Source of the DNA: Methylococcaceae bacterium UBA975
GTDB taxonomy: Bacteria > Pseudomonadota > Gammaproteobacteria > Methylococcales > Cycloclasticaceae
Assembly: GCA_002292375.1 (NCBI GenBank)
Contig: DBBV01000020.1
Location: 8,197-72,196 of the forward strand
Direction: 5' to 3'
DNA: 64,000 bases
Made by a program: the position numbers and the translations under genes. Positions 36,028-58,717 of this stretch are shown piece by piece; positions within the stretch are counted from its first letter, which is position 1; every line of letters starts with the position of its first letter. Below the pieces are notes generated by a model, which searched no databases, was not told the origin of the DNA, and saw only the letters and a program-made list of their open reading frames with translations.

Positions 36028-36165
36028 TGTGGGTTACACCATAAGCTGCGACTAGCAACCCTTACATTTACTGGGCTCATGGACTTCATTAACCGTTTGT
36101 TTGCGACTAAATAGAAGCATAAGGTGCGACTTTACCCGTGAAAAGCGGCATAAGGTGCGACTTTA
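36028..36165 (+). mobile_element. Tn7-like transposon end (tns-distal, left-type) with TnsB-type binding sites
   Basis: TGTGGGTTACACC-ATAAGCTGCGACT has the same TGT-to-ATAA spacing as the Tn6677 end (TGTTGATGCAACC-ATAAAGTG, recalled). Further copies at about 36102 (weak), 36117-36134 and 36148-36165 (identical GCATAAGGTGCGACTTTA). Confidence 0.72.
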
Positions 36166-36421
36166 TTATTCTCATGCTGCTTTTAGCTATTTTTAAGTTT
36201 CAAACGATATGGGGGGAGCAATGACAACTGACTGCAAATGCTAGAGAACTTGAACCTTGAACCTCCAACCACCAGTACCACAAACTGGTATCTCTCACGC
36301 CTAACTAATTGATTTTTATAATATATAAAAAAACCATCTAACCTTTTACTGTAGATCACCCTATATGAATCAATAATTTGAACCGTTTGGTTAGACGTTA
36401 TTGGTAATTATCATAAACTCC

Positions 36422-37438
36422 TTATTTATAGTTTTGACACCACGATGCCAACGTATCAACCCATGCTGGATGCTCATTGAGGCAAGGGATTAAATTTAGT
36501 TCACTGCCCCCTGCTTCTTTAAACATTTCGTCTGCGCGAATAGCAATTTCTTCTAACGTTTCTAAACAATCAGTAACAAAAGCTGGGCAAATAACCAATA
36601 CGTTTTTTACGCCTGATTGGGCCAGTTCACGCAAGCGATCTTCCGTATTGGGCCCAAGCCATTTAGCGCGGCCTAGCCTAGATTGGAAGGCGATAGAGTA
36701 TTTATCTGAAGGGATGCCGGCCTGATCAACGAAACATTGCGTGGTACGCATAATTTGGTGGCGGTAACAGGTTTTATGTGCCTCATTGGTTTGTTGGCAA
36801 CAATCTGGACGTTGTAAGCAATGCTGGCCTGTTGGGTCGCGTTTTGTAATGTGCGATTCCGGTAAGCCGTGGTAACTAAAGACGATGTGATCGTACTCTT
36901 CCTCCAAGTATGGCTTGGCACTGAGCACTAGAGCATCAATGTAGTCTGGCTGGTCATAAAACGGTTCAACCACGTTCAGTATAATGTTTAACTGATGTTT
37001 TTTTATAACACGTTCTGCTTCCTCAATTGAAGTGGTGACGGTGCTATCAGCAAAGTGTGGGTAGAGCGGGATGTAAACCACTTCTTCGATACCGGGCTGT
37101 TGACTGAGCGTTAATAATTCACTTTCTATACTTGGTTTGCCATACCGCATAGCCATTGCAACGGGCATATCCAATTTAGCCTGTAGTGCGTTTTTAAGGT
37201 GATCAGATAAGACAACCAATGGCGAACCCTCATCCGTCCAGACGCTTTGATACGCCTGCGCTGAAGCTTTGGGCCTTGTTGGCAACACAAACAGACTAAC
37301 GATCATTCGGCGTAGTAACCACGGTAACTGAATGACGTGGTGGTCCATTAAAAACTGATTGAGATAACGTCGAACTGATGCTGTGTCTGGATTATCTGGT
37401 GAACCCAAATTGGCCAGTAGTACCGCTTTATTAGTCAT
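36422..37438 (-). CDS. hemH: Ferrochelatase
   Basis: LLANLGSP, MRYGKPS, FSYHGLP, FQSRLG, FVTDCLETLEE. Confidence 0.96.
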   Translation of the reverse strand: MTNKAVLLANLGSPDNPDTASVRRYLNQFLMDHHVIQLPWLLRRMIVSLFVLPTRPKASAQAYQSVWTDEGSPLVVLSDHLKNALQAKLDMPVAMAMRYGKPSIESELLTLSQQPGIEEVVYIPLYPHFADSTVTTSIEEAERVIKKHQLNIILNVVEPFYDQPDYIDALVLSAKPYLEEEYDHIVFSYHGLPESHITKRDPTGQHCLQRPDCCQQTNEAHKTCYRHQIMRTTQCFVDQAGIPSDKYSIAFQSRLGRAKWLGPNTEDRLRELAQSGVKNVLVICPAFVTDCLETLEEIAIRADEMFKEAGGSELNLIPCLNEHPAWVDTLASWCQNYK

Positions 37439-37445
37439 ATTGAGT

Positions 37446-38354
37446 TTAATTTTTGGTGGTTAAAACGTCTGTTAACGCTAGTTTTAGGTCGGGATAATAG
37501 AAATGAAAACCCATTGCTTGTGCTTTCTCGGGAATTGTTCTTTGGCCGGTTAACAATAAACCAGACATTTCGCCTAACAGGGCTTTAAGTAACCACGCAG
37601 GTACCGGAATAAACGCATAGCGATGGAGAACGTCGGCCAATGTCTTCGTAAATAGTTTATTCGACACAGGGTTTGGTGAGTTAGCATTAAACGGCCCTTC
37701 TGCCTGATTATTGTTCGCTAGAAATGCGAGCAAGTTGACCATATCCTTAATATGTACCCAAGGCATGTATTGCTGACCAGAACCGAGCCGGCCCCCAACA
37801 CCTAATTTGAATGGCAACAACATTTTGTGCAAAAAACCACCGTTCGATGCTAAGACTAGCCCTGTTCGTACCGTGCAGACACGAACACCGGATTGTGAAG
37901 CGCGCAAGGCTTGTTGTTCCCATGCCTCGCACAATTGATGCGTGTATTCATCGGTAAAGTCACTTTGCTCTGTTAAAACGGTGTCTCCGCCATCGCCATA
38001 CCACCCGACGGCCGAACCGCTGATTAAACACTCCGGAACGTGTCTACGTTCCACTATCCAATCCACTAGATTTCTTGTTAAGCCTATTCGGCTGTCTTCT
38101 AACGCGGCTTTACGTTTTTTTGTCCACGGTTTGTCGGCAATAGGCTCGCCGGCCAAGTTGATGACCCAATCAATACTCATGTCGTCATCAATCTCAGTTA
38201 ATGACCGAATGCCTTTAACCCGCTTGCCGCATTTATCTTTAACCGTTTCTGGGTTTCTACTTAATACGGTAACGTGGTGATTTTGGCCTAGCAATTGTTC
38301 ACACAACGCCGAACCAATTAAGCCTGTTCCACCTGTTATAAGAATATTTTTCAT
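37446..38354 (-). CDS. TIGR01777-family NAD-dependent epimerase-like oxidoreductase (YfcH-like)
   Basis: ITGGTGLIG, NLAGEPIA, GSGQQYMPWVH. Confidence 0.9.
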   Translation of the reverse strand: MKNILITGGTGLIGSALCEQLLGQNHHVTVLSRNPETVKDKCGKRVKGIRSLTEIDDDMSIDWVINLAGEPIADKPWTKKRKAALEDSRIGLTRNLVDWIVERRHVPECLISGSAVGWYGDGGDTVLTEQSDFTDEYTHQLCEAWEQQALRASQSGVRVCTVRTGLVLASNGGFLHKMLLPFKLGVGGRLGSGQQYMPWVHIKDMVNLLAFLANNNQAEGPFNANSPNPVSNKLFTKTLADVLHRYAFIPVPAWLLKALLGEMSGLLLTGQRTIPEKAQAMGFHFYYPDLKLALTDVLTTKN

Positions 38355-38469: not shown

Positions 38470-39414
38470 GTGAAAATAAAAGTAGGCATCAGTAGTTGTT
38501 TGCTGGGCAATGAAGTACGTTTTGATGGTGGACATAAACATTCTCGCTTGTGCAGTGACAACTTATCTCGCTATTTTGACTTTATACCCGAGTGCCCAGA
38601 AGTTGCTAGCGGCATGTCAATCCCTCGCAAACCCATACGCCAAATTGGCGACATTAACTCGCCTAGCGTTGTTGCTGTTCACGACAACAGCTTAGATTAT
38701 ACCGACCAACTGAATACGTTTAGCAAAAACAAGGCCAAGCAATTAGATCATCTATGTGGCTATGTTTTTATGCAAAAATCACCCAGTTGCGGTGTTTTTC
38801 GGGTCAAGGTATTTCAAGAAAGCGGTTATCCAGCCGCCGAACCAGGGCGTGGGGTTTATGCAAAAGCCGTTATGGATGCCAACCCATTATTACCCGTTGA
38901 AGAATCGGGCCGATTAGAAGATGCCGTCTTGCGGGAAAACTTTATCACCCGGGTTTATGCATACCACAACTGGCAACAATTAAATAAACAAGGGCTTAGC
39001 CACCACAGCATTATTGAATTTCACGCCAGTTATAAATATTGCCTTATGGCGCGCTCTCCGACTCATTATGTTGAACTGGGGCGACTATTAGCCGATGCTG
39101 GGAAGCATGATATTGATGAATTAGCTAAGCGTTATTTTAGCTTATTGATGGAAAAACTGAGTATTCTAGCCACCCGTAAAACCCATACTAATGTGTTGAT
39201 GCATTTACAAGGCTATTTGAAAAAGGTCTTGTCCGCTAAAGAAAAACAAGAGCTTGGCAACATCATTGACCAATACCGCACCAATCAAGTGCCATTAATT
39301 GTTCCGATTACCCTACTTAAACACCACTTTAGTAACCACCCTGACCCCTACATTGCTAAACAGGCTTATTTGCAACCCTACCCCGACGATTTGAGTTTAC
39401 GAAATGCCATCTGA
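38470..39414 (+). CDS. DUF523/DUF1722 (YbgA-like) protein
   Basis: GISSCLLGNEVRFDGGH, KSPSCG, EEsGRL, YLQPYP. Confidence 0.92.
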   Translation: MKIKVGISSCLLGNEVRFDGGHKHSRLCSDNLSRYFDFIPECPEVASGMSIPRKPIRQIGDINSPSVVAVHDNSLDYTDQLNTFSKNKAKQLDHLCGYVFMQKSPSCGVFRVKVFQESGYPAAEPGRGVYAKAVMDANPLLPVEESGRLEDAVLRENFITRVYAYHNWQQLNKQGLSHHSIIEFHASYKYCLMARSPTHYVELGRLLADAGKHDIDELAKRYFSLLMEKLSILATRKTHTNVLMHLQGYLKKVLSAKEKQELGNIIDQYRTNQVPLIVPITLLKHHFSNHPDPYIAKQAYLQPYPDDLSLRNAI

Positions 39415-40306
39415 ACAAGCATTTACTATTGGTGATGTTAGCCAGCAAACTGGCGTTGCATCTGTCACCTTACGTGCATGGGAACGTCGATATGGATTAA
39501 TTAAGCCGCAAAGAACACCAAAAGGCCACCGCGTTTATAACCAAAACAATATTCAGCAAATTCAACACATTTTGTCGTGGCTTAACCGCGGCGTAGCAAT
39601 TAGCAAAGTGCCCGCATTGCTTGCCAGTGGCAAGTCATCCAACGATATAGCTTCAACTGATGAACAATGGGTAAAGCAACAAAACGGATTTCTAGCGGCA
39701 CTAACACAGCTTAAGCAGCGCGGCTTAGACCAACTGCTTGACGAATTGAACAAGGCGACGCCCTTTGTCACGTTATGTGAGCAGGTATACCAACCTTTAC
39801 ACGCGCTATTGATACAGCGCTGGCAACAGCAACCGTTAGGCTACCAACTGGAACAACAATTGTGGGAACAGGGTTGGCAACGCCAAGTGATGATTGTGAC
39901 GTTACGTACCGACAAACAAAAAGCACAAGGGACGTGCTACTTAGTGAGTCTGGACGCTGTTGGACCGTCGCTAAATTACTACTTGCTACATATCCAGCTA
40001 TTGCAAAGCGGCATTCGCGTGAATGCCTTTAATACAGTTGATGATTTAGCTGGCTTAAAACGCCTGAATAATAATGCGGAATTGCCATTAATGATTTTTG
40101 CAGATCAACGCGTAGAGCAAACAACATTTAATCAATTATCTAAGTTAAGCAACTTATGGCAAGAAGACATCATCTGCGTAGGCCGTATGGCAGATATTCA
40201 CGATAAACAACTAGCTGATATACCCCTTAATTCGGTTGGCGGCAACATGAGTGAATGTTGGCACTCAACCGTTATGCAAGCTTGGTTCGCTAAATTAAAA
40301 AAATAA
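39404..40306 (+). CDS. MerR-family transcriptional regulator (LitR/CarH-like position)
   Basis: TLRAWERRYGLIKPQRTPKGHRVY; immediately upstream of the photolyase. Confidence 0.88.
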   Translation: MPSEQAFTIGDVSQQTGVASVTLRAWERRYGLIKPQRTPKGHRVYNQNNIQQIQHILSWLNRGVAISKVPALLASGKSSNDIASTDEQWVKQQNGFLAALTQLKQRGLDQLLDELNKATPFVTLCEQVYQPLHALLIQRWQQQPLGYQLEQQLWEQGWQRQVMIVTLRTDKQKAQGTCYLVSLDAVGPSLNYYLLHIQLLQSGIRVNAFNTVDDLAGLKRLNNNAELPLMIFADQRVEQTTFNQLSKLSNLWQEDIICVGRMADIHDKQLADIPLNSVGGNMSECWHSTVMQAWFAKLKK

Positions 40307-41721
40307 TGTCACAGCAATTAGTTTGGTTTCGCAATGATTTGCGCATAAAAGATAACCCGGCGCTTTTTCATGCTTGCCAAGCAGAGCAAGCTGTAACTGC
40401 CATTTACATCGCAACCCCACATCAATGGCAAAAACACGATGATGCTGCAGTTAAAATAGATTTCTGGCGCCGCAATCTTTTTGAACTACAACAAGATTTG
40501 GCTAAACTTAATATTCAACTGCATTTTTTTGAGGAGGACAGCTATCAGCAAATACCGGATTTAATTGCCACTATTTTCCAACAATGGCAAATCAATCAAC
40601 TGTATTTTAACCAAGAGTACCAAGCCAACGAACAGCAAAGAGATCAGGCCGTTATGGAGCGTTGTCAAAAAATTGGACTGTCATATCAACACTATCATGA
40701 CCAGTTACTCTTACCACCAGCGAGTTTAAGGACGAAGGCAGGCACACCCTTTAAGGTGTTTACGCCTTTTTCAAAGCACGCTAGACGACACCTATTGAAT
40801 TCTTTTCATATTTACCCAGCACCCGAGCCTTGTAAAAAAACGACTGTCGATAAGTTGAAACATCAATGCGACTTAAGAGAAATATCGTGGCCAACGGTGT
40901 CAAAAAGTTTGTACAACTTTTGGCCCGCAGGTGAGCAAAAAGCCATAGCGAGACTAGCCGAATTTTTCCAACAACCTATTCGCAGTTACCAAAATAACCG
41001 CAATCTACCTGCAGTACTCGGTACCAGTCGCCTATCGCCTTATTTGGCGAGCGGCATTATTTCAATCCGCCAATGTTGGCAAGCTTCTGAACAATACGGA
41101 GAAGTTAATACAGACATACATATTTGGCAAAATGAATTGCTATGGCGAGAATTTTACAAACATACACTGATTGATTACCCACAAGTTTCTAGGCATAAAC
41201 CGTGGAAAATACAAACTGAACAAATTGAATGGCGACATGATGGCGAACAATTAAGTGCATGGCAGCAAGGTAAAACTGGATTCCCTCTTATTGATGCAGC
41301 CATGCGACAATTACTGACGCAGGGTTGGATGCACAATCGTTTACGCATGATAGTGGCGATGTTTTTAACTAAACATTTATTAATTGATTGGCGCTTAGGT
41401 GAGCGATGGTTTATGCAACATTTGATCGATGGTGATTTGGCAGCAAACAATGGGGGCTGGCAATGGTGTGCATCAACAGGAACTGATGCCGTTCCCTACT
41501 TCAGAATTTTCAATCCCGTCACTCAATCACAACGGTTTGATCCGAAAGGCACCTTTATTCGCCATTATTTACCCGAGTTGGCTCACTTGTCCGATAAAGA
41601 GATTCACTTACCGAACGTTAAAAATAAGCCTGAGAATTACCCAGAACCCATTGTCGATTTAAAGGTCTGCCGGATTAGAGCTCTTTCAGCCTTTAAGAAG
41701 CTAAAACAAAACGTTAATTAA
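40306..41721 (+). CDS. phrB: Class I CPD DNA photolyase
   Basis: WFRNDLR, TSRLSPYL, GWMHNRLRM, NNGGWQW, FRIFNP. Confidence 0.95.
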   Translation: MSQQLVWFRNDLRIKDNPALFHACQAEQAVTAIYIATPHQWQKHDDAAVKIDFWRRNLFELQQDLAKLNIQLHFFEEDSYQQIPDLIATIFQQWQINQLYFNQEYQANEQQRDQAVMERCQKIGLSYQHYHDQLLLPPASLRTKAGTPFKVFTPFSKHARRHLLNSFHIYPAPEPCKKTTVDKLKHQCDLREISWPTVSKSLYNFWPAGEQKAIARLAEFFQQPIRSYQNNRNLPAVLGTSRLSPYLASGIISIRQCWQASEQYGEVNTDIHIWQNELLWREFYKHTLIDYPQVSRHKPWKIQTEQIEWRHDGEQLSAWQQGKTGFPLIDAAMRQLLTQGWMHNRLRMIVAMFLTKHLLIDWRLGERWFMQHLIDGDLAANNGGWQWCASTGTDAVPYFRIFNPVTQSQRFDPKGTFIRHYLPELAHLSDKEIHLPNVKNKPENYPEPIVDLKVCRIRALSAFKKLKQNVN

Positions 41722-41732
41722 AGGATAAAACA

Positions 41733-42242
41733 ATGCGTTATTTTTTATATGGTTTTCTTTTCATTCTATCGGGTTGTGTTGGCATCCCCGAGGGCGTTCA
41801 ACCCGTTTCAAACTTTGAGCTTAATAAGTATTTAGGCAAATGGTATGAAGTTGCTCGACTAGATCATTCGTTTGAAAGAGGCTTAAACCAAGTAAGCGCA
41901 GAGTACAGCTTGAGAAAAGACGGTGGTGTAAACGTTATTAACCGCGGGTTTTCGTCTGAAAATAATGAGTGGAAAGAAGCGTTAGGTAAAGCCTATTTTG
42001 TTAACGAACCAAACGAAGGTTATTTAAAGGTTTCTTTTTTTTGGCCGTTTTATGGTTCTTATATTGTTTTTGAGTTGGACAAAGAACGTTACCAATATGC
42101 CTTCATATCCGGGCCGGATACGGATTATTTATGGTTGTTATCAAGAACTCCCACCGTTGAACCTGAAGTTATGGAAAAGTTTATCTCAATGTCTGAAGCA
42201 CGCGGATTTGATACATCACAATTGATTGTCGTTGAACATTAA
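41733..42242 (+). CDS. blc: Outer-membrane lipocalin lipoprotein Blc
   Basis: LSGC lipobox, YLGKWYEVARL, YLWLLSR. Confidence 0.93.
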   Translation: MRYFLYGFLFILSGCVGIPEGVQPVSNFELNKYLGKWYEVARLDHSFERGLNQVSAEYSLRKDGGVNVINRGFSSENNEWKEALGKAYFVNEPNEGYLKVSFFWPFYGSYIVFELDKERYQYAFISGPDTDYLWLLSRTPTVEPEVMEKFISMSEARGFDTSQLIVVEH

Positions 42243-42291: not shown

Positions 42292-42672
42292 ATGGCAAAG
42301 CTTTTTGATTACTTTCAGATAAGGGGCTTCACACTGAAAAATCATGTGTGCGTTTCACCTATGAGCCAATACAGAGCAAAAGATGGCGCGGCCAATCATT
42401 GGCCCGGCTTTTCAAGCCGATTTTGCCAAAGAAAAACGCCAACATTGCATCAATGGCGGTTGGTTATATGGGATGCGCGTGTTGTAAATACGGTTATCGA
42501 ATCGGGGCAAGCCGACCTTATCGCCATTGGAAGAGAGTTGTTGAACAACCCTAATTGGGCTTTACAGGCAGCCAAAAAAATTGCAGCGGATGGTAATTAT
42601 TCCCTGTGGGACCCAGCCTTTGGTTGGTGGTTAAGCAAACGCGAACGCGTTATGCGTAAATTGGGACTTTGA
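42292..42672 (+). pseudogene. Internally deleted and frameshifted NADH:flavin oxidoreductase (YqjM/XenA-like)
   Basis: N-terminus LKNHVCVSPMSQY and C-terminus GQADLIAIGRELL remain; only 126 codons; NIASMAVGY lies in another frame. Confidence 0.8.
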
Positions 42673-42743: not shown

Positions 42744-43202
42744 ATGAACAAACATGATGAATTACCTACCGAGCATCACGACCCTTTAATTTCTGTTCTA
42801 CATAAGGCAATTTAATTTGCCATTAGAATATTAGCTGTGTTGATGGTACTGGTTATTTTTTGGGGCGTAGCCGATGTTTTGTACGTCATGTACAACCAGC
42901 TTATTGCGCCTCCTTTTTTACTGTTAAGCCTGTCCGATATCTTTAAAACGTTCGCAGCATTTTTAGCTGTTTTAATTGCAATTGAAATTTTTCAAAATAT
43001 TGTTTTGTACCTAAGAACAGATGTATTCCCATTAAGATTAGTTATCGCAACCGCTATGATGGCAATGGCAAGAAAAGTCATTATTATTGACTTTAAGTTT
43101 GTGGTTCCTATGCATATGTTTGCCCTGGCTAGCATCATTTTGGCATTAGGCATCACTTATTACTTGTTAGGAAAAAATAAAGAGGACGTTGTTAAATTAT
43201 GA
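42744..43202 (+). pseudogene. PsiE-family membrane protein gene with an in-frame nonsense codon
   Basis: ATG 42744 MNKHDELPTEHHDPLISVLHKAI*FAIRILAVLM; TAA at 42813-42815; the rest has IAIEIFQNI...MARKVII. Confidence 0.75.
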
Positions 43203-43579
43203 AGGCATTGTTACTCGTCGCACACGGGAGCCGACGCAAACAATCGAACGACGAAGTTGAGACCTTAGCTGAAAAACTTAAAAACAACTGTGGCGAGCAG
43301 TACGGCATTGTTAAGTCTGCTTTTTTAGAGCTTGCCGATGTGTTGATTCCTGATGGTATCGAACAATGTATTGAGGATGGCGCAACGTCTATTACTATCC
43401 TACCCTACTTCCTTAATTCTGGACGTCACGTGGTGACAGACATACCCAACATCATCAACACCTGCACCATCCAACACCCAAACATCAATATAAGCCTTGC
43501 ACCTCATTTGGGAGCTTCCGATTTAATGATTGATTTATTGATTACATCCGCCGTTAATGCGAAATCAGTTGAGGCTTAA
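43199..43579 (+). CDS. Short CbiX/SirB-type chelatase
   Basis: LLVAHGSR, AFLEL, PYFLNSGRHV..DIP, HLG. Confidence 0.9.
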   Translation: MKALLLVAHGSRRKQSNDEVETLAEKLKNNCGEQYGIVKSAFLELADVLIPDGIEQCIEDGATSITILPYFLNSGRHVVTDIPNIINTCTIQHPNINISLAPHLGASDLMIDLLITSAVNAKSVEA

Positions 43580-44070
43580 ATTTCTAAGCGCGGTTTTCGT
43601 AAAAATGTAACGAACAAAACAGCCCAAAATACTGTGCTAAACATAGTAAATTCAATCGGCATCTGTATGACGACAGAAGACAGTTTGCTTGCAGCCCAAT
43701 ACGAAGCCGGGCCAAATATGCCCCCCAGTATAACCGCAACCCATAGCTTGCCATTTATCCAGCTATAACACGTTTCAAACGTAATAGAAAAAAGCAACCA
43801 AAGTAGTAGTAACCAGAATGGTAAGGCCGATCCGTTACTAGCAAACTCGATTATTTGGAGTTTGGCTAAGCTCCAGTCTGTAATGCAGCCAATACTGAAC
43901 ATCAATAGTTTCGGCGAAAAGTACGCTAAATAAGAAATCGGTTTTGTCTTATATAAATCTACCACCAGATACAACAAAATCAAAGCGATTGCACCTAAGT
44001 AAAGCAGGTTCTCATGCCCTAAAACCAACACTAACCAACCGGCTTGAAATAATAAAACTGTTTGCCACAT
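43576..44070 (-). CDS. DUF2878-like membrane protein
   Basis: PFWLLLLWLLF, GGIFGPASYWAA; typical member of RpoE-ChrR clusters. Confidence 0.8.
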   Translation of the reverse strand: MWQTVLLFQAGWLVLVLGHENLLYLGAIALILLYLVVDLYKTKPISYLAYFSPKLLMFSIGCITDWSLAKLQIIEFASNGSALPFWLLLLWLLFSITFETCYSWINGKLWVAVILGGIFGPASYWAASKLSSVVIQMPIEFTMFSTVFWAVLFVTFLRKPRLEI

Positions 44071-44078
44071 GTTGATAG

Positions 44079-45374
44079 TTATTTCTCCAAGGGTGCTAGT
44101 GACATTGGAACACGCGCCAATGGCTTGACTAAGTGCAGTTGAGATACGCTGATGACCTGTTCTTTAAAGCCACCTTCACAGTAGCTGAAGTAGTATTCCC
44201 ACATTCGTATGAACGCGTCACTGAAGCCTTGTACTTTTATTTCTTCAATACGCTCTTTAAACGACTTTTTCCATTCATTTAACGTTCTCGCGTAATGCGT
44301 ACCGATGTCATCCATATTCGTCATTCGCAGGTCACCGGATTTAGTCAAACTGTGGCTAATGGCGTTAACAGACGGTATGCAACTACCAGGAAAAATATAG
44401 CGCTTTATGAAATCCACTTCACTTTTCGCGCTATTAAAACGCTGATCGCTAATCGTGATGGCTTGAAGTAACATTTCGCCATCGTCTTTTAAAAGATCAC
44501 TGCACTTAGCAAAGAAGGTATCAAAGTATTGATGCCCAACCGCTTCGATCATTTCTATAGACACCAACTTATCGTACTGTCCAGTGAGCTCACGGTAGTC
44601 ATGTTTTAATAAGGTGATTTTATCGCTTAAGCCTGCGTCTTCAACTTGTTCTTGCGTGTGTGCGTATTGCTCTTCAGAAATTGTAGTAGTGGTGACGTGA
44701 CAGCCATAATTCTTAGCAGCGTACATTGCAAAACCACCCCACCCTGTTCCAATTTCGATTACGTGATCTTCTGGCTTCAAATTTAAACGTGTACAAATCC
44801 TTTCTAATTTGTTGATCGATGCTTGCTCCATTGTGTCATCAGGGTGGTAGAAAATACCCGATGAATACATCATCGTTGGATCGAGAAATAACTTAAAAAA
44901 GTCATTACCTAGGTCGTAATGAGCAACAATATTGCTTTTACTTCCCGCGTGCGTATTTTTATTCAGCCAGTGAAACGCTTTTTTAATGGGGGTTGTGAAG
45001 CTTGCAAGCCCTGATTCCATTGAGTCCATAACAGATTGGTTTAGCGCAAATAGTTGAATAACCTTGGTCAGGTCTGGCGTGCGCCAGTAATCGCTTATAT
45101 AAGCTTCAGCAGCACCTACACTACCACCTAATGCTATATACCAATAAAACTCGCTATTCAAAACGTTCATTTCAACGACTAAATCGCTACGCTTATTGCC
45201 GACAAACGTTTGCGTTTCTCTATTGTCTGTCAAGGTTAATTGGCCGTACTGAAGGTGACTTAAGTGTTTAAACACGGCTTTTTTTAAGGCCTTAGTAAAA
45301 GAGGTATTTCTACTATTACTTGTTTTGTTTTCTAAGTGTTCCGTTAGTTTTTTTACTGATGCTGAATTACTCAT
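44079..45374 (-). CDS. cfa: Cyclopropane-fatty-acyl-phospholipid synthase family methyltransferase (UfaM-like)
   Basis: HYDLGNDFF, MMYSS, EIGTGWG, VSIEMIEAVG. Confidence 0.92.
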   Translation of the reverse strand: MSNSASVKKLTEHLENKTSNSRNTSFTKALKKAVFKHLSHLQYGQLTLTDNRETQTFVGNKRSDLVVEMNVLNSEFYWYIALGGSVGAAEAYISDYWRTPDLTKVIQLFALNQSVMDSMESGLASFTTPIKKAFHWLNKNTHAGSKSNIVAHYDLGNDFFKLFLDPTMMYSSGIFYHPDDTMEQASINKLERICTRLNLKPEDHVIEIGTGWGGFAMYAAKNYGCHVTTTTISEEQYAHTQEQVEDAGLSDKITLLKHDYRELTGQYDKLVSIEMIEAVGHQYFDTFFAKCSDLLKDDGEMLLQAITISDQRFNSAKSEVDFIKRYIFPGSCIPSVNAISHSLTKSGDLRMTNMDDIGTHYARTLNEWKKSFKERIEEIKVQGFSDAFIRMWEYYFSYCEGGFKEQVISVSQLHLVKPLARVPMSLAPLEK

Positions 45375-48628: not shown

Positions 48629-48630
48629 GG

Positions 48631-50288: not shown

Positions 50289-50954
50289 ATGAATATGCAA
50301 GCGCAAAGACAAGTAAACGAAAACTTAGTATATTGGTCAGCTCATACTATTCTTCGGCAACCAATTTATTCCTTTATGGGCGAGCCATCACCAAGCAAGG
50401 CGGAACAAGCAAGTCTGTGCAAACAATACATCCATGCGATTGCCTTTGAACAAGATAAGAACGCGTACAAAGCTTTGTATATTTACTTTGCTCCCAAGGT
50501 CAAAACATTTTTCAAACAACATGCTAGCGCAAGTCATGCCGAAGAGATGACTCATGAAGTCTTTATACGTGTTTGGCAAAAGGCCAAGACATATCAGGCA
50601 GACAAGGCAAATGTTTCAACTTGGATTTTCACCATAGCTAGAAATTTAAAAATTGATTTGCTTAGGCAAAAGAGAATTGTTGAAGTCAAACTTGAGGACT
50701 CTCAGTCAGATCTCCACATAGCTGAAGATGACGTTCATGAAGAGCTTGTTAGTGCCTACGACAAAATTAAATTGACTAATAATTTTAAGTATTTAAGCAA
50801 CGAACAAAAAAACGTTATTTTAAAAGTCTATTACGAGGATAAAAGCCACCAATTAGCAGCTCAAGAACTTGGCTTAACATTAGGTGTCATCAAGTCTCGA
50901 ATTAGAAGCTCATTGAAGGTTTTACGTCACCATTTACGGAATCAAAGCGAATGA
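50289..50954 (+). CDS. rpoE: ECF sigma factor RpoE (ChrR partner)
   Basis: VSTWIFTIARNLKIDLLR region 2 and LGVIKSRIR region 4; overlaps chrR. Confidence 0.88.
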   Translation: MNMQAQRQVNENLVYWSAHTILRQPIYSFMGEPSPSKAEQASLCKQYIHAIAFEQDKNAYKALYIYFAPKVKTFFKQHASASHAEEMTHEVFIRVWQKAKTYQADKANVSTWIFTIARNLKIDLLRQKRIVEVKLEDSQSDLHIAEDDVHEELVSAYDKIKLTNNFKYLSNEQKNVILKVYYEDKSHQLAAQELGLTLGVIKSRIRSSLKVLRHHLRNQSE

Positions 50955-51658
50955 ACAGCCATATAGACACCGAGTTATTATTAAACTATTCAAATGGAAA
51001 TGTAGAACCCGCATTGAGTTTGGCCATCGCTCTGCATCAAAAACAATGCAAACCTTGCCGACAAAAAATTGCAGCTATAGAGTCTTCTTACGGCCAGAAT
51101 CTCGAATTATCAGAAGCTTCTCGCATTGAAAATAATAGCTTTGAGCGTTTAACAGCTGATTTAGATAAATTACCAACATCAGACAATGGTGTTTCAAAAA
51201 CTTCTAAAAGCCTTTATAAGAAAAATATCGATATCGTTGATTTTGGCGAAGATGACACCTTAAGTTATGCCATTGCCGCAATAAATAGGCCTTTATTTAA
51301 CCAATTATCCGATTTTAATTACGATGATTTCGAGTGGCAAAAACTCTCATCCAAAATATCATCTGTTGCACTTGAGTTATACGATCCTAGCTTTAAAGTT
51401 AATTTGTTACGTTTTTCACCCCATACCAAAATCCCTAAGCATACTCATTTAGGCAAAGAGTTCACGTATGTTATTAAAGGTGATTTTAAAGACCACAAAG
51501 GTAAACATAACGCAGGTGATTTTATTGCGTGTGACGGTTCTGATGAACATAAACCTATCGTCGGCACCTCAGGTTGTGTTTGTTTAGCAATAACAGATGC
51601 ACCCTTACATTTTACCGGTGTACTCGGTCCAATTTTTAATAGGTATGCTAGCTATTAA
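50951..51658 (+). CDS. chrR: Anti-sigma factor ChrR
   Basis: HQKQCKPC ZAS motif plus cupin HTHLGKEFTYVIKGDF...HKP. Confidence 0.9.
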   Translation: MNSHIDTELLLNYSNGNVEPALSLAIALHQKQCKPCRQKIAAIESSYGQNLELSEASRIENNSFERLTADLDKLPTSDNGVSKTSKSLYKKNIDIVDFGEDDTLSYAIAAINRPLFNQLSDFNYDDFEWQKLSSKISSVALELYDPSFKVNLLRFSPHTKIPKHTHLGKEFTYVIKGDFKDHKGKHNAGDFIACDGSDEHKPIVGTSGCVCLAITDAPLHFTGVLGPIFNRYASY

Positions 51659-51727
51659 GTTGGCTGTCTTATTTCAACATCTAACATTTCCTCTATTAAG
51701 GCTACAATCAAATTACTTGAAGAACTT

Positions 51728-52228
51728 ATGAGAAAAATTTTTATACTGCTATTTTTGGTACAAATAGGCATCGTAAGTGCAAACGAAATACCTCTAAAAG
51801 AACTAAACGTTGTTGGCCGTTCCAGTTTCAGTGTTTGGTTTTGGGATATCTACGATATTGAATTAAGAACCCCGAGCGGCACTTACAAGGCAGGAAATTT
51901 TCCGTTGTCACTTGAATTAACCTACAAAAGAGAAATATCTAACATTGAGCTTGTGGATGAAACGGTCAACCAATGGGAACGTTTCAATATTGGCGAAGAC
52001 CAGAAAAAAAACTGGGCGAAACAATTATTAGTGATATGGCCTAGTGTTAAACCTGCAGATAAGATTACGTTTTACATTGATAATGAGAAAGTTACCTACT
52101 TCTACTTTAACAATCAATTTATAGGAGAAATAGGTCTGGCAGGCTTTTCAGATGCTTTTGCTTCTATTTGGTTAGGCTTAGATGGCCCGTATCCCAAGAT
52201 GACCAAAAAATTAATTGGTTCCCATTAA
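51728..52228 (+). CDS. Chalcone-isomerase-like protein
   Basis: WFWDIYDI, IWPSVKPADKIT, FASIWLG. Confidence 0.82.
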   Translation: MRKIFILLFLVQIGIVSANEIPLKELNVVGRSSFSVWFWDIYDIELRTPSGTYKAGNFPLSLELTYKREISNIELVDETVNQWERFNIGEDQKKNWAKQLLVIWPSVKPADKITFYIDNEKVTYFYFNNQFIGEIGLAGFSDAFASIWLGLDGPYPKMTKKLIGSH

Positions 52229-52903
52229 TAGCAATGATTTATTGAGGAACTAGATTACAACTTATATGCGACAAAAAAGGTCGCACTTGCTATTAAACAA
52301 CCTACCTTGTGAGCTCACTCTCCTGAAATCTAGCAACATAACCGAAACCTAGCGATTCGTCTTTTCCAACTGTGACAAATAAAGTGGATATTACTGAAAT
52401 TATAGACATTTACTAGAGTGCTACTTCTCGCTGGATAAAAGCTTAGGAGCAAGGCGTAAAACAGACTATAAAACAGAGTAAACGAGGCCATCGACCAGAA
52501 GAGCAAAGACGTCTAACAGACTCATGCAATATCAGCTTTATGACTAATAAGTCAGGCCTTTGATATGGCGGATGATAAAACCGTCAAACGAATCGGAGCT
52601 AACCACCTCACCATCAAAATTGATAACACTGTAGTTGCTACAGTGATCGAAAAAGGCAGTACCGCCTGTAACCCAAGATAAAGAATTTTCCACTTAAAAT
52701 TCAAAAGACCGACTGTAAATGAGCGACTTTTTTGACATCATGAGGCGAGGCTCATTCAAACAGGTAGCCCACTACTACGCCGTCTTTGTTCTGATACCAA
52801 TCAACCGAAGCTTTAAGCAGCTCTCGAATTATTTTTTCTTCCTTTTACAGGTATAGTTTGAGCGAACATTTCTACGGTACTTCGTAATAGATAACTGCTT
52901 CAT

Positions 52904-55003
52904 TTAATTACCATCATTAAGAAATTCATTCATTAGTTTAATGACCGATGGGTATGTGTAGATCACATGCCGGCTAAAACCACAGGCTTTGGCTATAGCC
53001 ATTTTGTTTGGTTTACCTGCACGCATTGGGATTGAAGCTGATGTCTCTTTTAGTATCTTGAAATACCTACGCACTGCCTTTTCATATTTCAACGTGAGGT
53101 CTTTTCTTTGCCTTTTTCTAGCTCGCTTTAACTCGTCTTCTCTAGCTAAAACCAACTTTTCTTTATGCGTTGTTAGAATGATCGGTTGACTACCTCTGGT
53201 GCCATGCTTACTGTTGCGTTTTAAAGCAATCACTTCAATATCATTAGACTTACATAACCTTAAAAGAAGTCTAGTATTGGTGTTAAGTAAGTGCGCTACG
53301 CCCGATAATACGACATAATTTCCACAAAAATAATCAACAGATTCTGCCGTTATTCGTACATGTCCCTCGACAGTTGTTGCAACCAAAATATTTTGTGTAA
53401 TAGCATCGTTAATAACTGATGAATCTAAGCCCGTTTTATCCACAACCTCAGTAAATCCGAGTGTACTTATTTCAACTAGTGATGTATGCCTTTTAATCAA
53501 CCTGTCTACTTGAGATTTGTCTAACATAAAGCCCGATAAATTTGAGTCAATCGAACATTCAGATTGAATCACCCCGTCAATCACTGCTGAAACTATATCT
53601 GATTTCAATTCAGTAGACTTAAGCTTCTTATTCATAATGTTTTTCAAACAAACCATTTCTTGTTTATAAAACCCCAATGGCTTTGCATGTTCCCTAGCTG
53701 ACTGCATTAACAGTTTTATCTCTTCAACAAACCAGGTTTCCTTTCGCCCCCGATGCAACGACTCAGTCGACACGGTACCTTCTTTTAAATATTTCAAAAC
53801 GCTAACGGGCACACCCAAGCTTGCACCCGCCTCTCGAATCGGAACCGTTTTAAAAAAAACTTCAGGTATAAGCGTACCTCTCATATCTATGATGACTCGA
53901 GAACCGCCATTACTTGATGGGATGGTTTTTTTATTGATATAACGGCTGTCAATGATCATATTCAACACACGCGGCGACATGCCTGTCCTTTCACAAAACT
54001 GAGATTTTGTGAGGTACCTCATACCACTCGTTAATGACTGGTTATCTAGGAGCTTTTTATCAATATACCCTTTGCCCCAAACACCTTTTCCAAACTCAAT
54101 AAATTCACTTTTTAGATAAACGGCTTCTTTTTTGAAGGAGCTGTTTTTAAACAAGGCTAAGTAAAAAAGCTCGAACTGCTTTCGTAAAGCGGACTCTGGT
54201 GGCCGTGTTGTTTCATAATATTCACCCAGGTTGTTCAAAAACGCATGGTATCCATGCGGCCAGTTCTTAAAAATATTAACCGATGAATCGATCTCTCTAG
54301 AATGCGTATTAGAATGGGGCTCATGACACTTGTAGTACTGCTTTTGCAATACATTCATTATCAACAACAAAGAGCTCAATGATAATTCATCGAAATATTT
54401 AATCGGGTATCCGCTCTTATTCTTAAGTCCGCCTAAATTAAAACCATACACTTTTAACGCAATGATTTTCATAAACTCATTAACGTCCTCATCAAGCGTT
54501 TCTAAACTCTGATCAGAAAAATTAGCGCCGCAACGACAGGTTAATAACCCGGGCCTGAACCAACTGACTTTTTCGCCGCATTCAACACAGTGCGTTATTG
54601 GCACACACCCATGTTTTGGGCAACCAACGGCATAACTTAAACTCCAAAATGCTTCTATGTAACCGTCGTCTTCCGCACAATGGGGACAAAAGAATGCTCG
54701 CCTCAAATCAAACTGTGACGTCGATGCACTACGCTGTAAATTTTCATTTAATATTTTTGAATGATAAGCGGCATCATTTGCTATATTTGAGATGGCCTTT
54801 AACTTTTCAAAATCACATCCTGTTATATCAACAAGGCTACCCAAAGGGACATCTATGCCATGCATGCTATGAGCCGTCATACCCGCCACCTGTAATATGT
54901 GAACCGGCGTGTCGTACCCATTTCTCTCAGACAACCTTAGAATGTAACTTTGTAGGCTCTCAATTGCATAAGGTGCTGGTGTTCTTACTAGTAAACTCAT
55001 CAC
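52904..55003 (-). CDS. tniQ: TniQ/TnsD-family target selector with a long C-terminal extension
   Basis: ESLQSYILRLSERNGY start, CPHC...CPKH and CVECG...CRCG zinc motifs; last gene of the tns operon; 699 aa. Confidence 0.85.
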   Translation of the reverse strand: MMSLLVRTPAPYAIESLQSYILRLSERNGYDTPVHILQVAGMTAHSMHGIDVPLGSLVDITGCDFEKLKAISNIANDAAYHSKILNENLQRSASTSQFDLRRAFFCPHCAEDDGYIEAFWSLSYAVGCPKHGCVPITHCVECGEKVSWFRPGLLTCRCGANFSDQSLETLDEDVNEFMKIIALKVYGFNLGGLKNKSGYPIKYFDELSLSSLLLIMNVLQKQYYKCHEPHSNTHSREIDSSVNIFKNWPHGYHAFLNNLGEYYETTRPPESALRKQFELFYLALFKNSSFKKEAVYLKSEFIEFGKGVWGKGYIDKKLLDNQSLTSGMRYLTKSQFCERTGMSPRVLNMIIDSRYINKKTIPSSNGGSRVIIDMRGTLIPEVFFKTVPIREAGASLGVPVSVLKYLKEGTVSTESLHRGRKETWFVEEIKLLMQSAREHAKPLGFYKQEMVCLKNIMNKKLKSTELKSDIVSAVIDGVIQSECSIDSNLSGFMLDKSQVDRLIKRHTSLVEISTLGFTEVVDKTGLDSSVINDAITQNILVATTVEGHVRITAESVDYFCGNYVVLSGVAHLLNTNTRLLLRLCKSNDIEVIALKRNSKHGTRGSQPIILTTHKEKLVLAREDELKRARKRQRKDLTLKYEKAVRRYFKILKETSASIPMRAGKPNKMAIAKACGFSRHVIYTYPSVIKLMNEFLNDGN

Positions 55004-55020: not shown

Positions 55021-56007
55021 TTAAGCGCTGGTTTTGATTTTACGTGCACCGCTACCGGCTATCGACATACCGCCATTTGCAGAGCCTATTTGGCTTACTT
55101 TCTGCAAAATACTTATCGTCGGTTGCACGTTAAAATCAGGGTGAAAAGGAGCTATTTCAGCTGAAACAAATTCCTTGTTAAACGTTGATTCTAGATGTGC
55201 AACAGCTAAGTCCTCCAGCGTAATCACTGAGGTTTTCTGATCGATCGCATTCCAAACTGCACACTGAAGAAGCTTTACTAAGTAACCAAAAAGGCCGCCC
55301 GTCGCACAATAAAATCGAAATGCCATGCTTTCATTAGTCAAGCACGGCAAATCATAGTGTTCTTGCATCGACTCATTATAAGCACCTAAAATCGCAATAA
55401 AATCGGTCCTCAAGTCATTATTCAGCCACTCAAACCTCTGCATTTTTATAGGAGCTGAAAAACGACCCATCAATTGCTCATTTTGCTCTAATACTGCCTG
55501 ACAACTATGTAGCCCACCTACAACTAAAGCCACGTTGGTATCATCCACCAATATTTTTAGCCAATCAGCGACATGATGCATGACCTTACGTGACCCTTTG
55601 TCCCAAAAATGCTGGAACTCATCAATCATGACCATTTGCGTACCGCAATCTTTCATCAACTTTTTCAAGCGTGATGTTTTTATATTCTCCGTTCCAGTAC
55701 AGCACTTGGGGTCCCCAATTGATTCCAATAATAGCTCAACAAGCCCCTTTACTGTCGGTTTAGACGGCGTTCTAACTTTCAAGATTGGCACATTCAAACC
55801 ATCTTCAGTTCTTGTGCGCGGGTGATGCATTAAACACTCGTCAAGAACCCTGCTTTTACCGGTCCTAGACTCACCAATCAATGCAATGCAAATGGGATTA
55901 GCTGAGCCTTTAGCGTATTTAAAGCCTTGTTCGATTCTCTCAACCGCCCTAACAAAGCCAGAGTGCTCTACCAAGGTCTCTTGTATTAGGTATGGGTTTT
56001 CAATCAT
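55021..56007 (-). CDS. tnsC: TnsC/TniB AAA+ ATPase
   Basis: Walker A GESRTGKS, Walker B MVMIDEFQH. Confidence 0.9.
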   Translation of the reverse strand: MIENPYLIQETLVEHSGFVRAVERIEQGFKYAKGSANPICIALIGESRTGKSRVLDECLMHHPRTRTEDGLNVPILKVRTPSKPTVKGLVELLLESIGDPKCCTGTENIKTSRLKKLMKDCGTQMVMIDEFQHFWDKGSRKVMHHVADWLKILVDDTNVALVVGGLHSCQAVLEQNEQLMGRFSAPIKMQRFEWLNNDLRTDFIAILGAYNESMQEHYDLPCLTNESMAFRFYCATGGLFGYLVKLLQCAVWNAIDQKTSVITLEDLAVAHLESTFNKEFVSAEIAPFHPDFNVQPTISILQKVSQIGSANGGMSIAGSGARKIKTSA

Positions 56008-57983
56008 GAGTCACCCTTCTTTAGAGTAAGCGAGTCACTCCCCCTTGGCCTATGAATTGGTTTTATATATTTAACCGGCGTTGACGCATCCACTACAAAC
56101 ACTTTATCTATATGCTTATCATCATCCAGCAGGGCTGTTTTTTTCTTTTTATCTAATTTTGTTTTCGAACCTTTAAGCAATTCCTTATCACCGATGAAAC
56201 GTGCTTTTTTAACAGACCTTTTACCTGTTGTTGCCCAGTTCAACAATTTAGCTTTCGCCTTCAACAAGGACGCTTCATTAACAACAACACCGTTTTCTTT
56301 CGCCCACTTTTTTATCTGCTTGTGCTGCCAACGTGTCAACCCAACAGCATATTCTTTTGACACTGCAGGAACGATATAAGAATGGTTGTCACCTTTAACG
56401 AAAACGACAACTTCACCTATGTCATCATCGTTGTATAAAATATCAACCTTACAAGTATCACCGTACCTATAACGAAGGTCATTTAACTCAATTGAGTTGT
56501 AATGAAGTAAATCATGCACTATCCCTTTATGACTTAACGATTTGTCGTTTTTAGGCGTCCCAAATGAGATATCTAACTCTTCAGGCGAACTGATCAGTCG
56601 AATATCCTCTTGACAAACTGATTCCTCCCACATGTTAGCCGGTGTCATACCAATTCCTCGATGCTCCTCCTGGTGGTACACATCAACAAGCCACTTATAA
56701 ATACCTTCGTGCAACTTCTTATACGTCGTGAGCGCATGTTTTTTTGGATCGTAGTCATCTTTCTCAAAAATGTTAGAAAAACTTGTACCCGGAAGTTTAT
56801 GAATATACCCCGAATTTAACGTACCAAAGAAACGTTCAACCTTTCCTTTGAACCAACCGGTTCTACGCGGCGCCCGATGGATCTCTATACCGTATTTAAA
56901 GCAAGTGTTTCTTAAAGCGTGCGAGTGAAACTCCACCCCATTATCAACAACTAGTTGAGACATGACACCGTGTGCAGCCCAATCATTATCTATATCAGGG
57001 TAATTTTTGAGTAATTCAGTTTTGGGTAAAAAAGCTTGTTTTAAGCAACGTTGAACGGTCAAATTACTGGGTGGTTCAAAGCTAATTGAAAATCCGAGAA
57101 CACATCGTGTGTAATCATCAATACAAACTGTCAGCCAAGGGCGTCCTAAAGGCAGTCCAGTCTTATCATCAAGTACAAAAAGATCAAGCCTAGTATGATC
57201 GATCTCCGCACGCTCAAGCGGTGAATACGTAGTACGGTTTTGAATGACCGACCGGAATGCCTTTCTAGCATACTCACGCCCATGCCTTGCCACACAAACA
57301 TCATAAGCATTTATGTCTCCAATCATTCGCTTAACCAAAGCCATGCTCGGTAATTCCAGTTTGTTTAGCTCTCCACGCAACTCATTCTTTGTGATGACAA
57401 GGTATTTAGCGCACTCAAGAGCATCACTGATTGTCCCTCTTTCACGCCGCATATACGTTTCATCAATTGCGTCTCCGACCAGGTTTTCAACCTCAAGGCA
57501 ATATCGTCCACGACGATTACCTTTGTCCAAATTCTTATCTAACAGTGCAACCGAAGCATTGCCGTTCATTTCATATTTATTTTTCCACCTAATAACTGTT
57601 GATGGATCAGGAGCCCTACCTTTGCTACCCAGCTTAACCCAAGTTTCTTCTATGACCGGTATTAATCTAGAACGTGTGTTGGGTATGTCGAGCGTCGCTG
57701 ACACATATTCGAAGCGCTCAATTGCTTTTTCATAGCCTTTATCATTTACTGATAAAGCCAGACGTTTGTCACTTTTTAATTTTCTTTCTTCGGGAAAATG
57801 CTCAAAAATATTCATTGCATTTTGACTGATAAGACTCAGTATTTCACTTTCAGAAAACTCTTTGATTCGTTTTGTTTTCTGGCATTCTAATTGCCAAATA
57901 TCACCTTCAAACTTACGTATTAAGTTAAGTTTTTCGCCATCATATTCTACATACGACCCAACCATTATCCTCGCAGTACTCAT
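56004..57983 (-). CDS. tnsB: TnsB DDE transposase
   Basis: RAEIDHT, VVDNGVEF, KGKVERFFGT catalytic D/D/E. Confidence 0.92.
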   Translation of the reverse strand: MSTARIMVGSYVEYDGEKLNLIRKFEGDIWQLECQKTKRIKEFSESEILSLISQNAMNIFEHFPEERKLKSDKRLALSVNDKGYEKAIERFEYVSATLDIPNTRSRLIPVIEETWVKLGSKGRAPDPSTVIRWKNKYEMNGNASVALLDKNLDKGNRRGRYCLEVENLVGDAIDETYMRRERGTISDALECAKYLVITKNELRGELNKLELPSMALVKRMIGDINAYDVCVARHGREYARKAFRSVIQNRTTYSPLERAEIDHTRLDLFVLDDKTGLPLGRPWLTVCIDDYTRCVLGFSISFEPPSNLTVQRCLKQAFLPKTELLKNYPDIDNDWAAHGVMSQLVVDNGVEFHSHALRNTCFKYGIEIHRAPRRTGWFKGKVERFFGTLNSGYIHKLPGTSFSNIFEKDDYDPKKHALTTYKKLHEGIYKWLVDVYHQEEHRGIGMTPANMWEESVCQEDIRLISSPEELDISFGTPKNDKSLSHKGIVHDLLHYNSIELNDLRYRYGDTCKVDILYNDDDIGEVVVFVKGDNHSYIVPAVSKEYAVGLTRWQHKQIKKWAKENGVVVNEASLLKAKAKLLNWATTGKRSVKKARFIGDKELLKGSKTKLDKKKKTALLDDDKHIDKVFVVDASTPVKYIKPIHRPRGSDSLTLKKGDS

Positions 57984-58717
57984 GATATTGCCCCCTTTGT
58001 TCCATTTGCTTTCAACCTAAACAAAGAGCCCTTGCCTATTTTTTCACTACCATCTAGGACTAACACTCCCTCTAAAGTAAGCCGGGACAAAACACACCGG
58101 ATATCAACATCTGAGCTTGTGTAAATACCGTCAAGCCAAGATATTGAATCGTTAGAAAGAAAGTAGACCCTCAGTATTTCTCGAGACGTACCATCAATAG
58201 GATCACGACCGAACTTAAGAATCGTTCGTGCATTGTGTAGCCGTAATTTGTTGGATAATTGCTCACCAGTAACAACATGGTATGAATAGCCGATTTTTGG
58301 TAAGTATTCGGTTAAAAAATCGGTTCTAATTCGCACATCATCTTTTTTGGCTTCCCTTTCAGGCTTAATTTCCCACACTTGTAGCTCGCCATTTTTAGCA
58401 ACCAAGATGTCCGGATAATGCTTAGCTACCAGCCCCTCAATGCAATATTCAATTAACATCGGTTGTTCAGCAAAGGCTTGAATACTGGGACTCGCATCTA
58501 ATAGAACAAAGGCATTCAGTTCATTGTGGGACTCCCACTCCAACATCCGACTCATCTTCCACGATGGATATTCACCAGTTGGTCTAGCTCGTGATCGAGT
58601 ACTTACTTTGCGCATTCTGACTTTGCCCTTTTTAGGGAAAGTCAGCTTGATGTGATTGTTCTTATGCTGAAAGAACAGCGGTTTATTCTGTGATTCAAGG
58701 TTCGTTAAATTATTCAT
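57980..58717 (-). CDS. tnsA: TnsA endonuclease
   Basis: WESHNE, EQPM, HYPDILV, VWEIKP. Confidence 0.88.
   Translation of the reverse strand: MNNLTNLESQNKPLFFQHKNNHIKLTFPKKGKVRMRKVSTRSRARPTGEYPSWKMSRMLEWESHNELNAFVLLDASPSIQAFAEQPMLIEYCIEGLVAKHYPDILVAKNGELQVWEIKPEREAKKDDVRIRTDFLTEYLPKIGYSYHVVTGEQLSNKLRLHNARTILKFGRDPIDGTSREILRVYFLSNDSISWLDGIYTSSDVDIRCVLSRLTLEGVLVLDGSEKIGKGSLFRLKANGTKGAIS

Follow-up and report, generated by a model that had tools for sequence, protein, structure and literature searches.

A photoprotection gene cluster as apparent cargo of a Tn7-like transposon inserted beside nrdJb in a Methylococcaceae genome

We analyzed a 64,000-nucleotide stretch of the genome of Methylococcaceae bacterium UBA975 (contig DBBV01000020.1, positions 8,197 to 72,196 of the forward strand; hereafter the window), which holds the left part of what appears to be a Tn7-like transposon carrying a photoprotection gene cluster. 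The contig of the window (C23) ends 39 nt beyond it, and the element extends 7,976 bp further on contig C5 of the same assembly. The whole element measures 35,988 bp and is inserted just downstream of a ribonucleotide reductase gene. From its right end to its left end, it comprises a type I restriction-modification (R-M) system with a nested Olokun pair and an IS3-family element, the transposition genes tnsA-tnsB-tnsC-tniQ, and the 16-kb cluster. The features found in the window are as follows.

36023..36027, no strand: left copy of the target-site duplication, TTTGC in window orientation; GCAAA adjoins the right end at C5:3219-3223, and empty-site contigs have a single copy
36028..36164, plus strand: left end, with terminal TGTGGG and four dispersed TnsB-type sites (36047-36162), core (C)ATAAGNTGCGACT
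36422..38354, minus strand: hemH (second ferrochelatase) and a TIGR01777 oxidoreductase gene (Pfam, NCBIfam)
38470..42242, plus strand: operon of a ybgA-like gene (DUF1722), a MerR-family regulator, a cyclobutane pyrimidine dimer (CPD) photolyase, and the lipocalin Blc (Pfam, NCBIfam)
42292..42672, plus strand: C-terminal fragment of an old yellow enzyme (OYE)/NADH:flavin oxidoreductase gene (Pfam)
42837..43579, plus strand: psiE and cbiX-like genes (Pfam)
43576..50151, minus strand: DUF3833-fatty acid desaturase-SnoaL-SDR-FAD amine oxidase-DUF1365-CFA synthase-DUF2878 operon, furan-fatty-acid-like (Pfam)
50159..50242, no strand: palindromic divergent promoter region with two promoters of the ECF11 (extracytoplasmic function) type
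50289..52228, plus strand: genes for an ECF sigma factor, ChrR, and a chalcone-isomerase-like protein (Pfam, NCBIfam, motifs)
52229..52858, no strand: non-coding junction of cargo and backbone, beyond which (near 52858) sibling elements are again similar
52904..55003, minus strand: tniQ, 699 aa, TnsD-like target selector (Pfam TniQ above cut-off)
55021..56007, minus strand: tnsC, TniB-type AAA+ protein (Pfam TniB and AAA_22; Walker A GESRTGKS, Walker B MVMIDE)
56004..57983, minus strand: tnsB, DDE transposase of 659 aa (rve core match; candidate D/D/E at 262, 347, and 383)
57980..58717, minus strand: tnsA, endonuclease subunit of 245 aa (weak Pfam Tn7_TnsA-like_N and NCBIfam TnsA_like matches)
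59008..63559, plus strand: type I R-M system: half-size hsdS, then hsdM, then an hsdS interrupted by an IS3-family element
62001-63178, minus strand: IS3-family open reading frames (ORFs) in hsdS, nested in the R-M block
63552..64000, plus strand: 5' part of OloA, which continues onto C5 and is followed there by OloB, a 133-aa ORF, hsdR, a YgjP-like peptidase gene, and the right end

The left end is of the Tn7 type and reads TGTGGGTTACACCATAAGCTGCGACTA on the plus strand from 36028. It contains four TGCGACT cores, all on the plus strand, at 36047, 36102, 36125, and 36156. The entire window harbors nine copies of this motif on both strands, and the presence of four co-oriented ones inside 116 bp is far beyond chance; the minus-strand copies are isolated and lie within genes. 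This TGT-terminated end with its four sites had been called in a first-pass annotation made from the letters of the window, and we confirm it. The same annotation had predicted an inverted partner end next to a second copy of TTTGC. Neither the interval between tnsA and the next gene (58718-59007) nor the rest of the window contained such an end, but it was located on contig C5 at 3224, where an inverted TGTGGTTGAGACCATAAGGTGCGAC... adjoins GCAAA, which is TTTGC read on the other strand. This right end reads TGTGGTTGAGACCATAAGGTGCGACTTTTGAGTGATAAGGTGCGACTTTTGGCGGCATAAGATGCGACC (a search of the whole assembly with the terminal sequence found one other copy) and starts 32 bp past the stop codon of nrdJb. 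The two termini are thus inverted, of the form TGT...ACA, and equipped with several TnsB-binding-type repeats whose layout is unlike at the two ends: in the right end (C5:3224-3294), three TnsB sites abut one another at C5:3237-3294, whereas the four sites of the left end are dispersed. The span first proposed for the element, 36028 to 58717, was therefore correct at its left limit and too short on the right. Indeed, 58717 is the start codon of tnsA, and the element goes on through the type I R-M and Olokun genes that sit between tnsA and the right end.

Where they meet, C23 and reverse-complemented C5 share 24 identical nt, and one reading frame is continuous across the join. A single 146-kb metagenome contig covers, in succession, nrdJ, the R-M genes, the tns genes, the cluster, and a cassette array at 99.97-99.99% identity, and further independent contigs spanning the element are 100% identical. 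The join is thus confirmed, since independent metagenome contigs span nrdJ to the cassette array (99.96-100% identity).

Because the left flank of the element is a variable cassette array without simple synteny to relatives, the empty target was searched for by its junction. Its sequence was predicted by joining both flanks (...GTATTTTGCAAAATTAAATCAAGC...), and metagenome contigs were searched for exact matches. The predicted empty junction TTGTATTTTGCAAAATTAAATCAAGC is present in two Tara Oceans scaffolds, which match this genome at 99.7% and 98.1% identity over the 3,223 bp of nrdJ-nrdJb. In these scaffolds, nrdJb runs directly into the sequence found left of 36028; the pentamer is present once, and the cassettes that follow differ. 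The empty site that the first-pass annotation had proposed to look for in relatives hence exists in exact form. Since nrdJb adjoins the array in these contigs with no integrase between, the transposon did not part the array from intI. The array itself (29600-36027) is integron-like; its small cassettes (HigBA, HD-domain, HPP, Mrr, ABM monooxygenase) are separated by attC-like short repeats that recur across the genus.

The element-bearing contigs fall into two insertion registers that differ by 3 bp, and each register is accompanied by a perfect 5-bp duplication of its own; the two ends of a register were taken from the same records. In nrdJb orientation and with slashes at the element boundaries, type A reads ...TTTTGCAAA/TGTGG ... 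CCCACA/GCAAAATT and is found in this genome and in three 100%-identical contigs, while type B reads ...TTTTGC/TGTGG ... CCCACA/TTTGCAAAATT and is found in several contigs at 99.93-99.99% identity. Both types collapse to one empty target with a 3-bp offset. Two registers with co-varying duplications imply at least two insertions of the whole unit, and this points to recent transposition of the entire unit, cargo included, at least twice in an almost clonal population (genomes 99.96-100% identical). Paired 3-bp indels 36 kb apart were also considered as the origin of the registers, and are far less likely than two separate insertions. Overall, the ends, the empty site, and the registers support the central proposal of the first-pass annotation, namely that a 16-kb photoprotection module is mobilized as Tn7 cargo.

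We then compared the cluster with related genomes. Of the 22 representative species of the genus, 3 have ChrR. The entire cluster is colinear with a copy in one genome (G016) and 89-92% identical to it, as compared to 74% for purL and 80% for nrdJb of G016; another copy, in G018, is 75-78% identical. In addition, the GC content of the element is 40-42% versus 44.8% for the genome. The patchy distribution, the identity excess over core genes, and the GC content would together be a signal of horizontal acquisition of the cluster. The comparison of phrB/rpoE with the core genome that the first-pass annotation had called for thus came out in favor of acquisition, on the basis of pairwise identity and not of phylogeny.

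In G016-like species, the cluster is chromosomal; it has an attC cassette array on one side and a DUF3010 gene on the other, and tns genes are absent within 60 kb. According to the first-pass annotation, relatives carrying the cluster at the same locus without tns genes would have spoken against transposition; the tns-less copies that we found adjoin DUF3010, which is another locus. These copies nevertheless raise the question of whether the cluster is native here as well, that is, a chromosomal cluster that came to lie between unrelated or fossil Tn7 ends, for example by way of two tandem elements or a rearrangement, and that was never cargo. Such a history would fit the atypical distance of 13 kb between tnsA and the right end, the position of the G016 copy next to an attC array on its hemH side and beside DUF3010, and the presence of a DUF3010 homologue 22 kb to the left in the window. 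However, the surroundings of DUF3010 are otherwise without conserved synteny, near-identical genomes join nrdJb straight to the cassette-array flank with one pentamer copy, and the duplications match in both registers. Moreover, no additional ends were found inside the element, and the R-M block that separates tnsA from the right end belongs to the conserved backbone of the siblings. We therefore consider a native cluster extremely improbable. A specific version of it, modeled on G016 with attC beside hemH and DUF3010 as neighbor, was rejected: the other neighbors differ, and the empty site settles the question.

Sibling elements are informative about the position of the cargo. A pattern-based search of genome contigs for TnsB returned no relative, and a whole-genome search of 60 relatives returned TnsB homologues that are distant (35% identical at most). 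Siblings from metagenomes, whose TnsB is either at least 90% identical (L059/L060 and L061-L063) or 80-84% identical (L020-L026), have the same ends and the same tnsABC-tniQ genes as this element, and those with a visible flank (L020, L022, L023, and L025) occupy the same nrdJb site. Two relatives with TnsB 84% and 80% identical show the order nrdJ-nrdJb-right end-tnsA-tnsB-tnsC-tniQ, and their ends, nearly identical to those of this element, lie 31-32 bp past the nrdJb stop. The backbone shared with the 84% relative consists of three stretches: the right end and about 250 bp, tnsA through tniQ and 46 bp, and the terminal 64 bp of the left end, which are 88% identical to sibling L020. The cargo slot of the siblings is occupied by a single metallophosphatase gene, by toxin-antitoxin pairs (HipA and TacA), or by Wadjet-like genes (DUF3584/MksE/DUF7281), the latter two kinds being the cargo of siblings whose TnsB is at least 90% identical; among all these elements, the photoprotection cluster is found only in this one. 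Since the siblings carry differing cargo after tniQ, the interval from tniQ to the left end is a swappable cargo position. In the sister species G003 (nrdJb 90% identical), a right and a left end enclose one ion-channel/ion-transport gene and no tns genes (L003, G003:C160, 1895-3263). This pair lies 28 bp past nrdJb, its flanking pentamers do not match, and it may be a derivative at this attachment site that has decayed or is non-autonomous.

The four tns ORFs are intact and have kept their catalytic and Walker motifs. The tnsA and tnsB genes overlap here, and tnsA precedes tnsB in all sibling elements. TniQ is 78% identical to the TniQ of a sibling element at the same site. On C5, nrdJb is a TSCPD-domain gene that follows the class II ribonucleotide reductase gene and matches the C-terminal part of the B12-dependent enzyme. 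Ends of this type start 28-32 bp past the nrdJb stop, right end proximal, in this genome, G003, L020, L022, L023, L025, L046, and L048. Judging from this constant position, the target that TniQ recognizes is most likely the conserved 3' end of nrdJb, which encodes the C-terminal piece of the split, B12-dependent reductase. TniQ would direct insertion 25-32 bp past the stop, with the right end toward nrdJb and a 5-bp duplication. All features of Tn7-like transposons that are open to sequence testing were found, i.e., TnsA with TnsB, TnsC/TniB with TniQ, the ends, a 5-bp duplication with an empty site, and site and orientation specificity. We are thus confident that the element is a cut-and-paste Tn7-like transposon of 35,988 bp that is probably directed to the nrdJb site and carries the photoprotection cluster as cargo.

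Several observations nevertheless weigh against a mobile, cargo-bearing transposon. The G016-like cluster is a stable chromosomal locus without tns genes, and TnsA and TnsB score below the curated family cut-offs of Pfam and NCBIfam. The right end has three TnsB sites instead of the four of the siblings, owing to a 22-bp deletion, and this loss could weaken activity. One cargo gene, OYE, is truncated. The sole photolyase, cfa-type operon, and ECF-ChrR pair of the assembly are in the element, but the genome is 93% complete, so that "sole copy" is limited to the assembly. Finally, all 22-25 contigs with exact NrdJ, TnsB, or HemH proteins carry the element, which is therefore maybe near fixation in the lineage. 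The last observation, the right end being down one of its four TnsB sites, and the accumulation of an IS3 within the element would also be compatible with a domesticated island, in other words a Tn7-type insertion that is now fixed and immobile and is kept for its R-M, Olokun, and photoprotection genes. We regard domestication as unlikely. Indeed, the four tns ORFs retain their motifs, the two registers among 99.96-100% identical genomes indicate very recent movement, and empty sites persist in near-identical genomes. We infer instead that the transposition machinery is still active.

Turning to the cargo, every gene named in the first-pass annotation was recovered with Pfam and NCBIfam, and the cluster additionally comprises the truncated OYE, psiE, cbiX, DUF2878, and chalcone-isomerase-like genes. 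Its description as a complete regulon is generous, given the truncated OYE gene and functions assigned by homology only. G016 has the OYE gene in full within its cluster, indicating that about 740 bp were deleted here. The photolyase scores above the NCBIfam cut-off, and ChrR reaches 149.5 against TIGR02451 (cut-off, 124.5). ChrR contains an H-x3-C-x2-C motif at residue 29 (HQKQCKPC) and a cupin motif H-x-H-x3-E at residue 164 (HTHLGKE), and its gene overlaps that of the ECF sigma factor by 4 nt. The housekeeping hemH, elsewhere in the genome, is 37% identical to the cargo hemH. Paralogues of ybgA and blc are likewise found elsewhere in the assembly: about 540 bp separate a further ybgA-like gene (48% identical) from a further lipocalin gene (67% identical), and this interval contains no photolyase (G000 C16:133327-135300). 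The pair may be what is left of a native photolyase operon. A search for attC or tRNA remnants at the cargo boundaries (ARAGORN, Rfam) gave only hairpin noise at the promoter palindrome. A GCCTAAC...GTTAGAC pair adjoining hemH is a possible candidate only and is unproven.

Two divergent promoters lie in 50169-50232, TGATCC-N16-CGTAAA on the plus strand facing the sigma gene and TAATCC-N16-CGTATA on the minus strand facing the lipid operon. They are of the same motif type as the RpoE2-ChrR promoters of Shewanella oneidensis, TGATCC / CGTA(A/T)T (PMC4336711), whose regulon includes rpoE2-chrR, ybgA-phrB-cfa, and hemH2 (PMC4336711). The families of the DUF3833...CFA operon are part of the conserved core regulon of ECF11 sigmaE-ChrR; its cfa/DUF1365/FAD-oxidase genes form the conserved singlet-oxygen core and are responsible for the synthesis of furan fatty acids in Rhodobacter (PMC6852236). 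By analogy, the ECF11 sigma/ChrR pair would drive the furan-fatty-acid-type lipid operon from the divergent promoters. An ECF11-type motif was sought upstream of the photolyase operon and not found. The neighboring MerR-family protein is therefore the probable regulator of this operon, by analogy with the MerR/ChrR response of Vibrio cholerae to blue light (PMC5241685). In the MerR protein, Pfam and NCBIfam matched only the N-terminal helix-turn-helix (the CarH model covers residues 4-68 alone, far below its cut-off); they recognized no light-sensing or B12 domain, and the C-terminal 220 residues had no match. A palindrome, TATACAA-N10-TTGTATA, is located in 38370-38430 between the TIGR01777-hemH and ybgA-MerR-photolyase genes and is a candidate MerR operator.

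Taken together, the 16-kb module would serve light and singlet-oxygen defense and carry its own regulators, along with a MerR-regulated photolyase operon and a second ferrochelatase, a role that we infer by homology. The module could also be read more broadly, as a general oxidative- or envelope-stress and lipid-remodeling module that is not specific for light or singlet oxygen. ChrR-type systems indeed answer organic hydroperoxide, cadmium, and other stresses (PMC6852236, PMC4336711, PMC11832516), the MerR protein is without a recognizable B12 or light-sensing domain, and psiE, cbiX, and the TIGR01777 gene are without a proven light role. This broader reading seems rather improbable to us, however, as a bona fide CPD photolyase stands in an operon with the MerR gene, as ybgA-phrB-cfa, hemH2, and rpoE2-chrR make up the light/oxidative RpoE2/ChrR and MerR regulon in Shewanella and Vibrio (PMC4336711, PMC5241685), and as the singlet-oxygen regulon has the furan-fatty-acid genes as its conserved core (PMC6852236).

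The remainder of the element is the R-M and Olokun block, which ends on C5 with the YgjP-like peptidase gene and the right end (C5:3224-3294), next to nrdJb. The block YgjP-hsdR-...-hsdS-hsdM-hsdS', from the right end to tnsA, is common to the elements with TnsB at least 90% identical and is thus the backbone of this sub-lineage. Two large ORFs between hsdS and hsdR (63552-64000 and onto C5, L001:8149-11222) were without a match in Pfam and were identified by PADLOC as OloA (E 2e-100) and OloB (E 6e-198); the 133-aa ORF follows them. In one sibling element, an SMC/AAA_15-type ATPase occupies the Olokun position. In sibling elements, hsdS is uninterrupted and 388-400 aa long. The IS3 insertion is polymorphic: some same-species contigs (L043/L047) are without the IS3 and OloA, and a 514-aa ORF replaces hsdS-IS3-OloA; this looks like an IS-adjacent deletion that fused hsdS to the end of OloA.

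Upstream of nrdJ, ring-hydroxylating dioxygenase genes were found. In one type A strain (L048 3048-9545; ena:ERZ1896707 NODE_61), a tyrosine-integrase island with integrase, AlpA, DUF3987 primase-like, and DUF5681 genes lies directly upstream of nrdJ. It is not present in the other contigs, and mobile elements thus occur on both sides of the nrdJ locus.

We tentatively propose that a currently active nrdJ-targeting transposon makes photoprotection a strain-variable, mobile trait, gained or lost in one step, in a marine hydrocarbon degrader; this is a possibility that we hold with less than even confidence. If true, photolyase repair, ChrR-controlled singlet-oxygen defense, and furan-type lipid protection would be gained or lost together, and would maybe be selected where sunlight meets photosensitizing aromatic hydrocarbons. 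The empty site and registers A and B in near-identical genomes would then allow a direct fitness measurement of a transposon-borne regulon. The cargo of Tn7-like elements has mostly been described as defense, resistance, or other mobile elements. Here, a stress-response module travels with its own sigma/anti-sigma pair, a second regulator, and the target operons, suggesting that tolerance of light and photosensitizers can be a horizontally mobile, strain-level trait in marine microbes. Moreover, nrdJb emerges as a probable attachment site of the Tn7 family, and hence as the likely target of the 699-aa TniQ.

The element resembles Tn7 and Tn7-like transposons (Tn7 at glmS, Tn6230, Tn6022) in its TnsA and TnsB, AAA+ TnsC, TniQ selector, and TGT...ACA termini. 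As in Tn7, the TnsB sites are dense in the right end and spread out in the left, insertion creates a 5-bp duplication, and the element lies downstream of a conserved housekeeping gene at a short, fixed distance, right end proximal, with cargo between the selector gene and the left end. Its length of 36 kb is ordinary and R-M is the commonest cargo class of Tn7-like elements (Benler et al. 2021, PMC8649781). It differs from known Tn7-like elements in four respects. The attachment site is nrdJb, the C-terminal subunit of the class II ribonucleotide reductase; the ribonucleotide reductase targets in the literature searched are nrdB and nrdD, not nrdJ (bioRxiv 2025.07.27.667033). TnsC is short and TniB-like. 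About 13 kb of defense genes, from the right end to tnsA, form a conserved backbone, and a literature search returned no description of a defense block fixed at this position or of nrdJb attachment. Finally, the cargo is a photo-oxidative stress module with regulators of its own; no such module is mentioned in the main text of the survey (PMC8649781), and a literature search found no paper linking Tn7-like cargo with a photolyase.

The cargo, in turn, resembles the ECF11 sigmaE-ChrR systems of Rhodobacter sphaeroides and Shewanella oneidensis (RpoE2-ChrR) in its sigma/ChrR pair with zinc anti-sigma motif and cupin, and in the TGATCC-N16-CGTA promoters before the sigma operon and the divergent lipid operon. 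With these systems and Vibrio cholerae MerR/ChrR, it also shares the linked furan-fatty-acid-type genes, the ybgA-MerR-photolyase genes, and the second ferrochelatase. Unlike the Rhodobacter, Shewanella, and Vibrio genes, which are chromosomal and partly scattered, those described here form one 16-kb block in a transposon. Overall, the element belongs to the known Tn7-like family, its cargo is uncommon and well supported, and the natural evidence of its recent movement is unusually direct.

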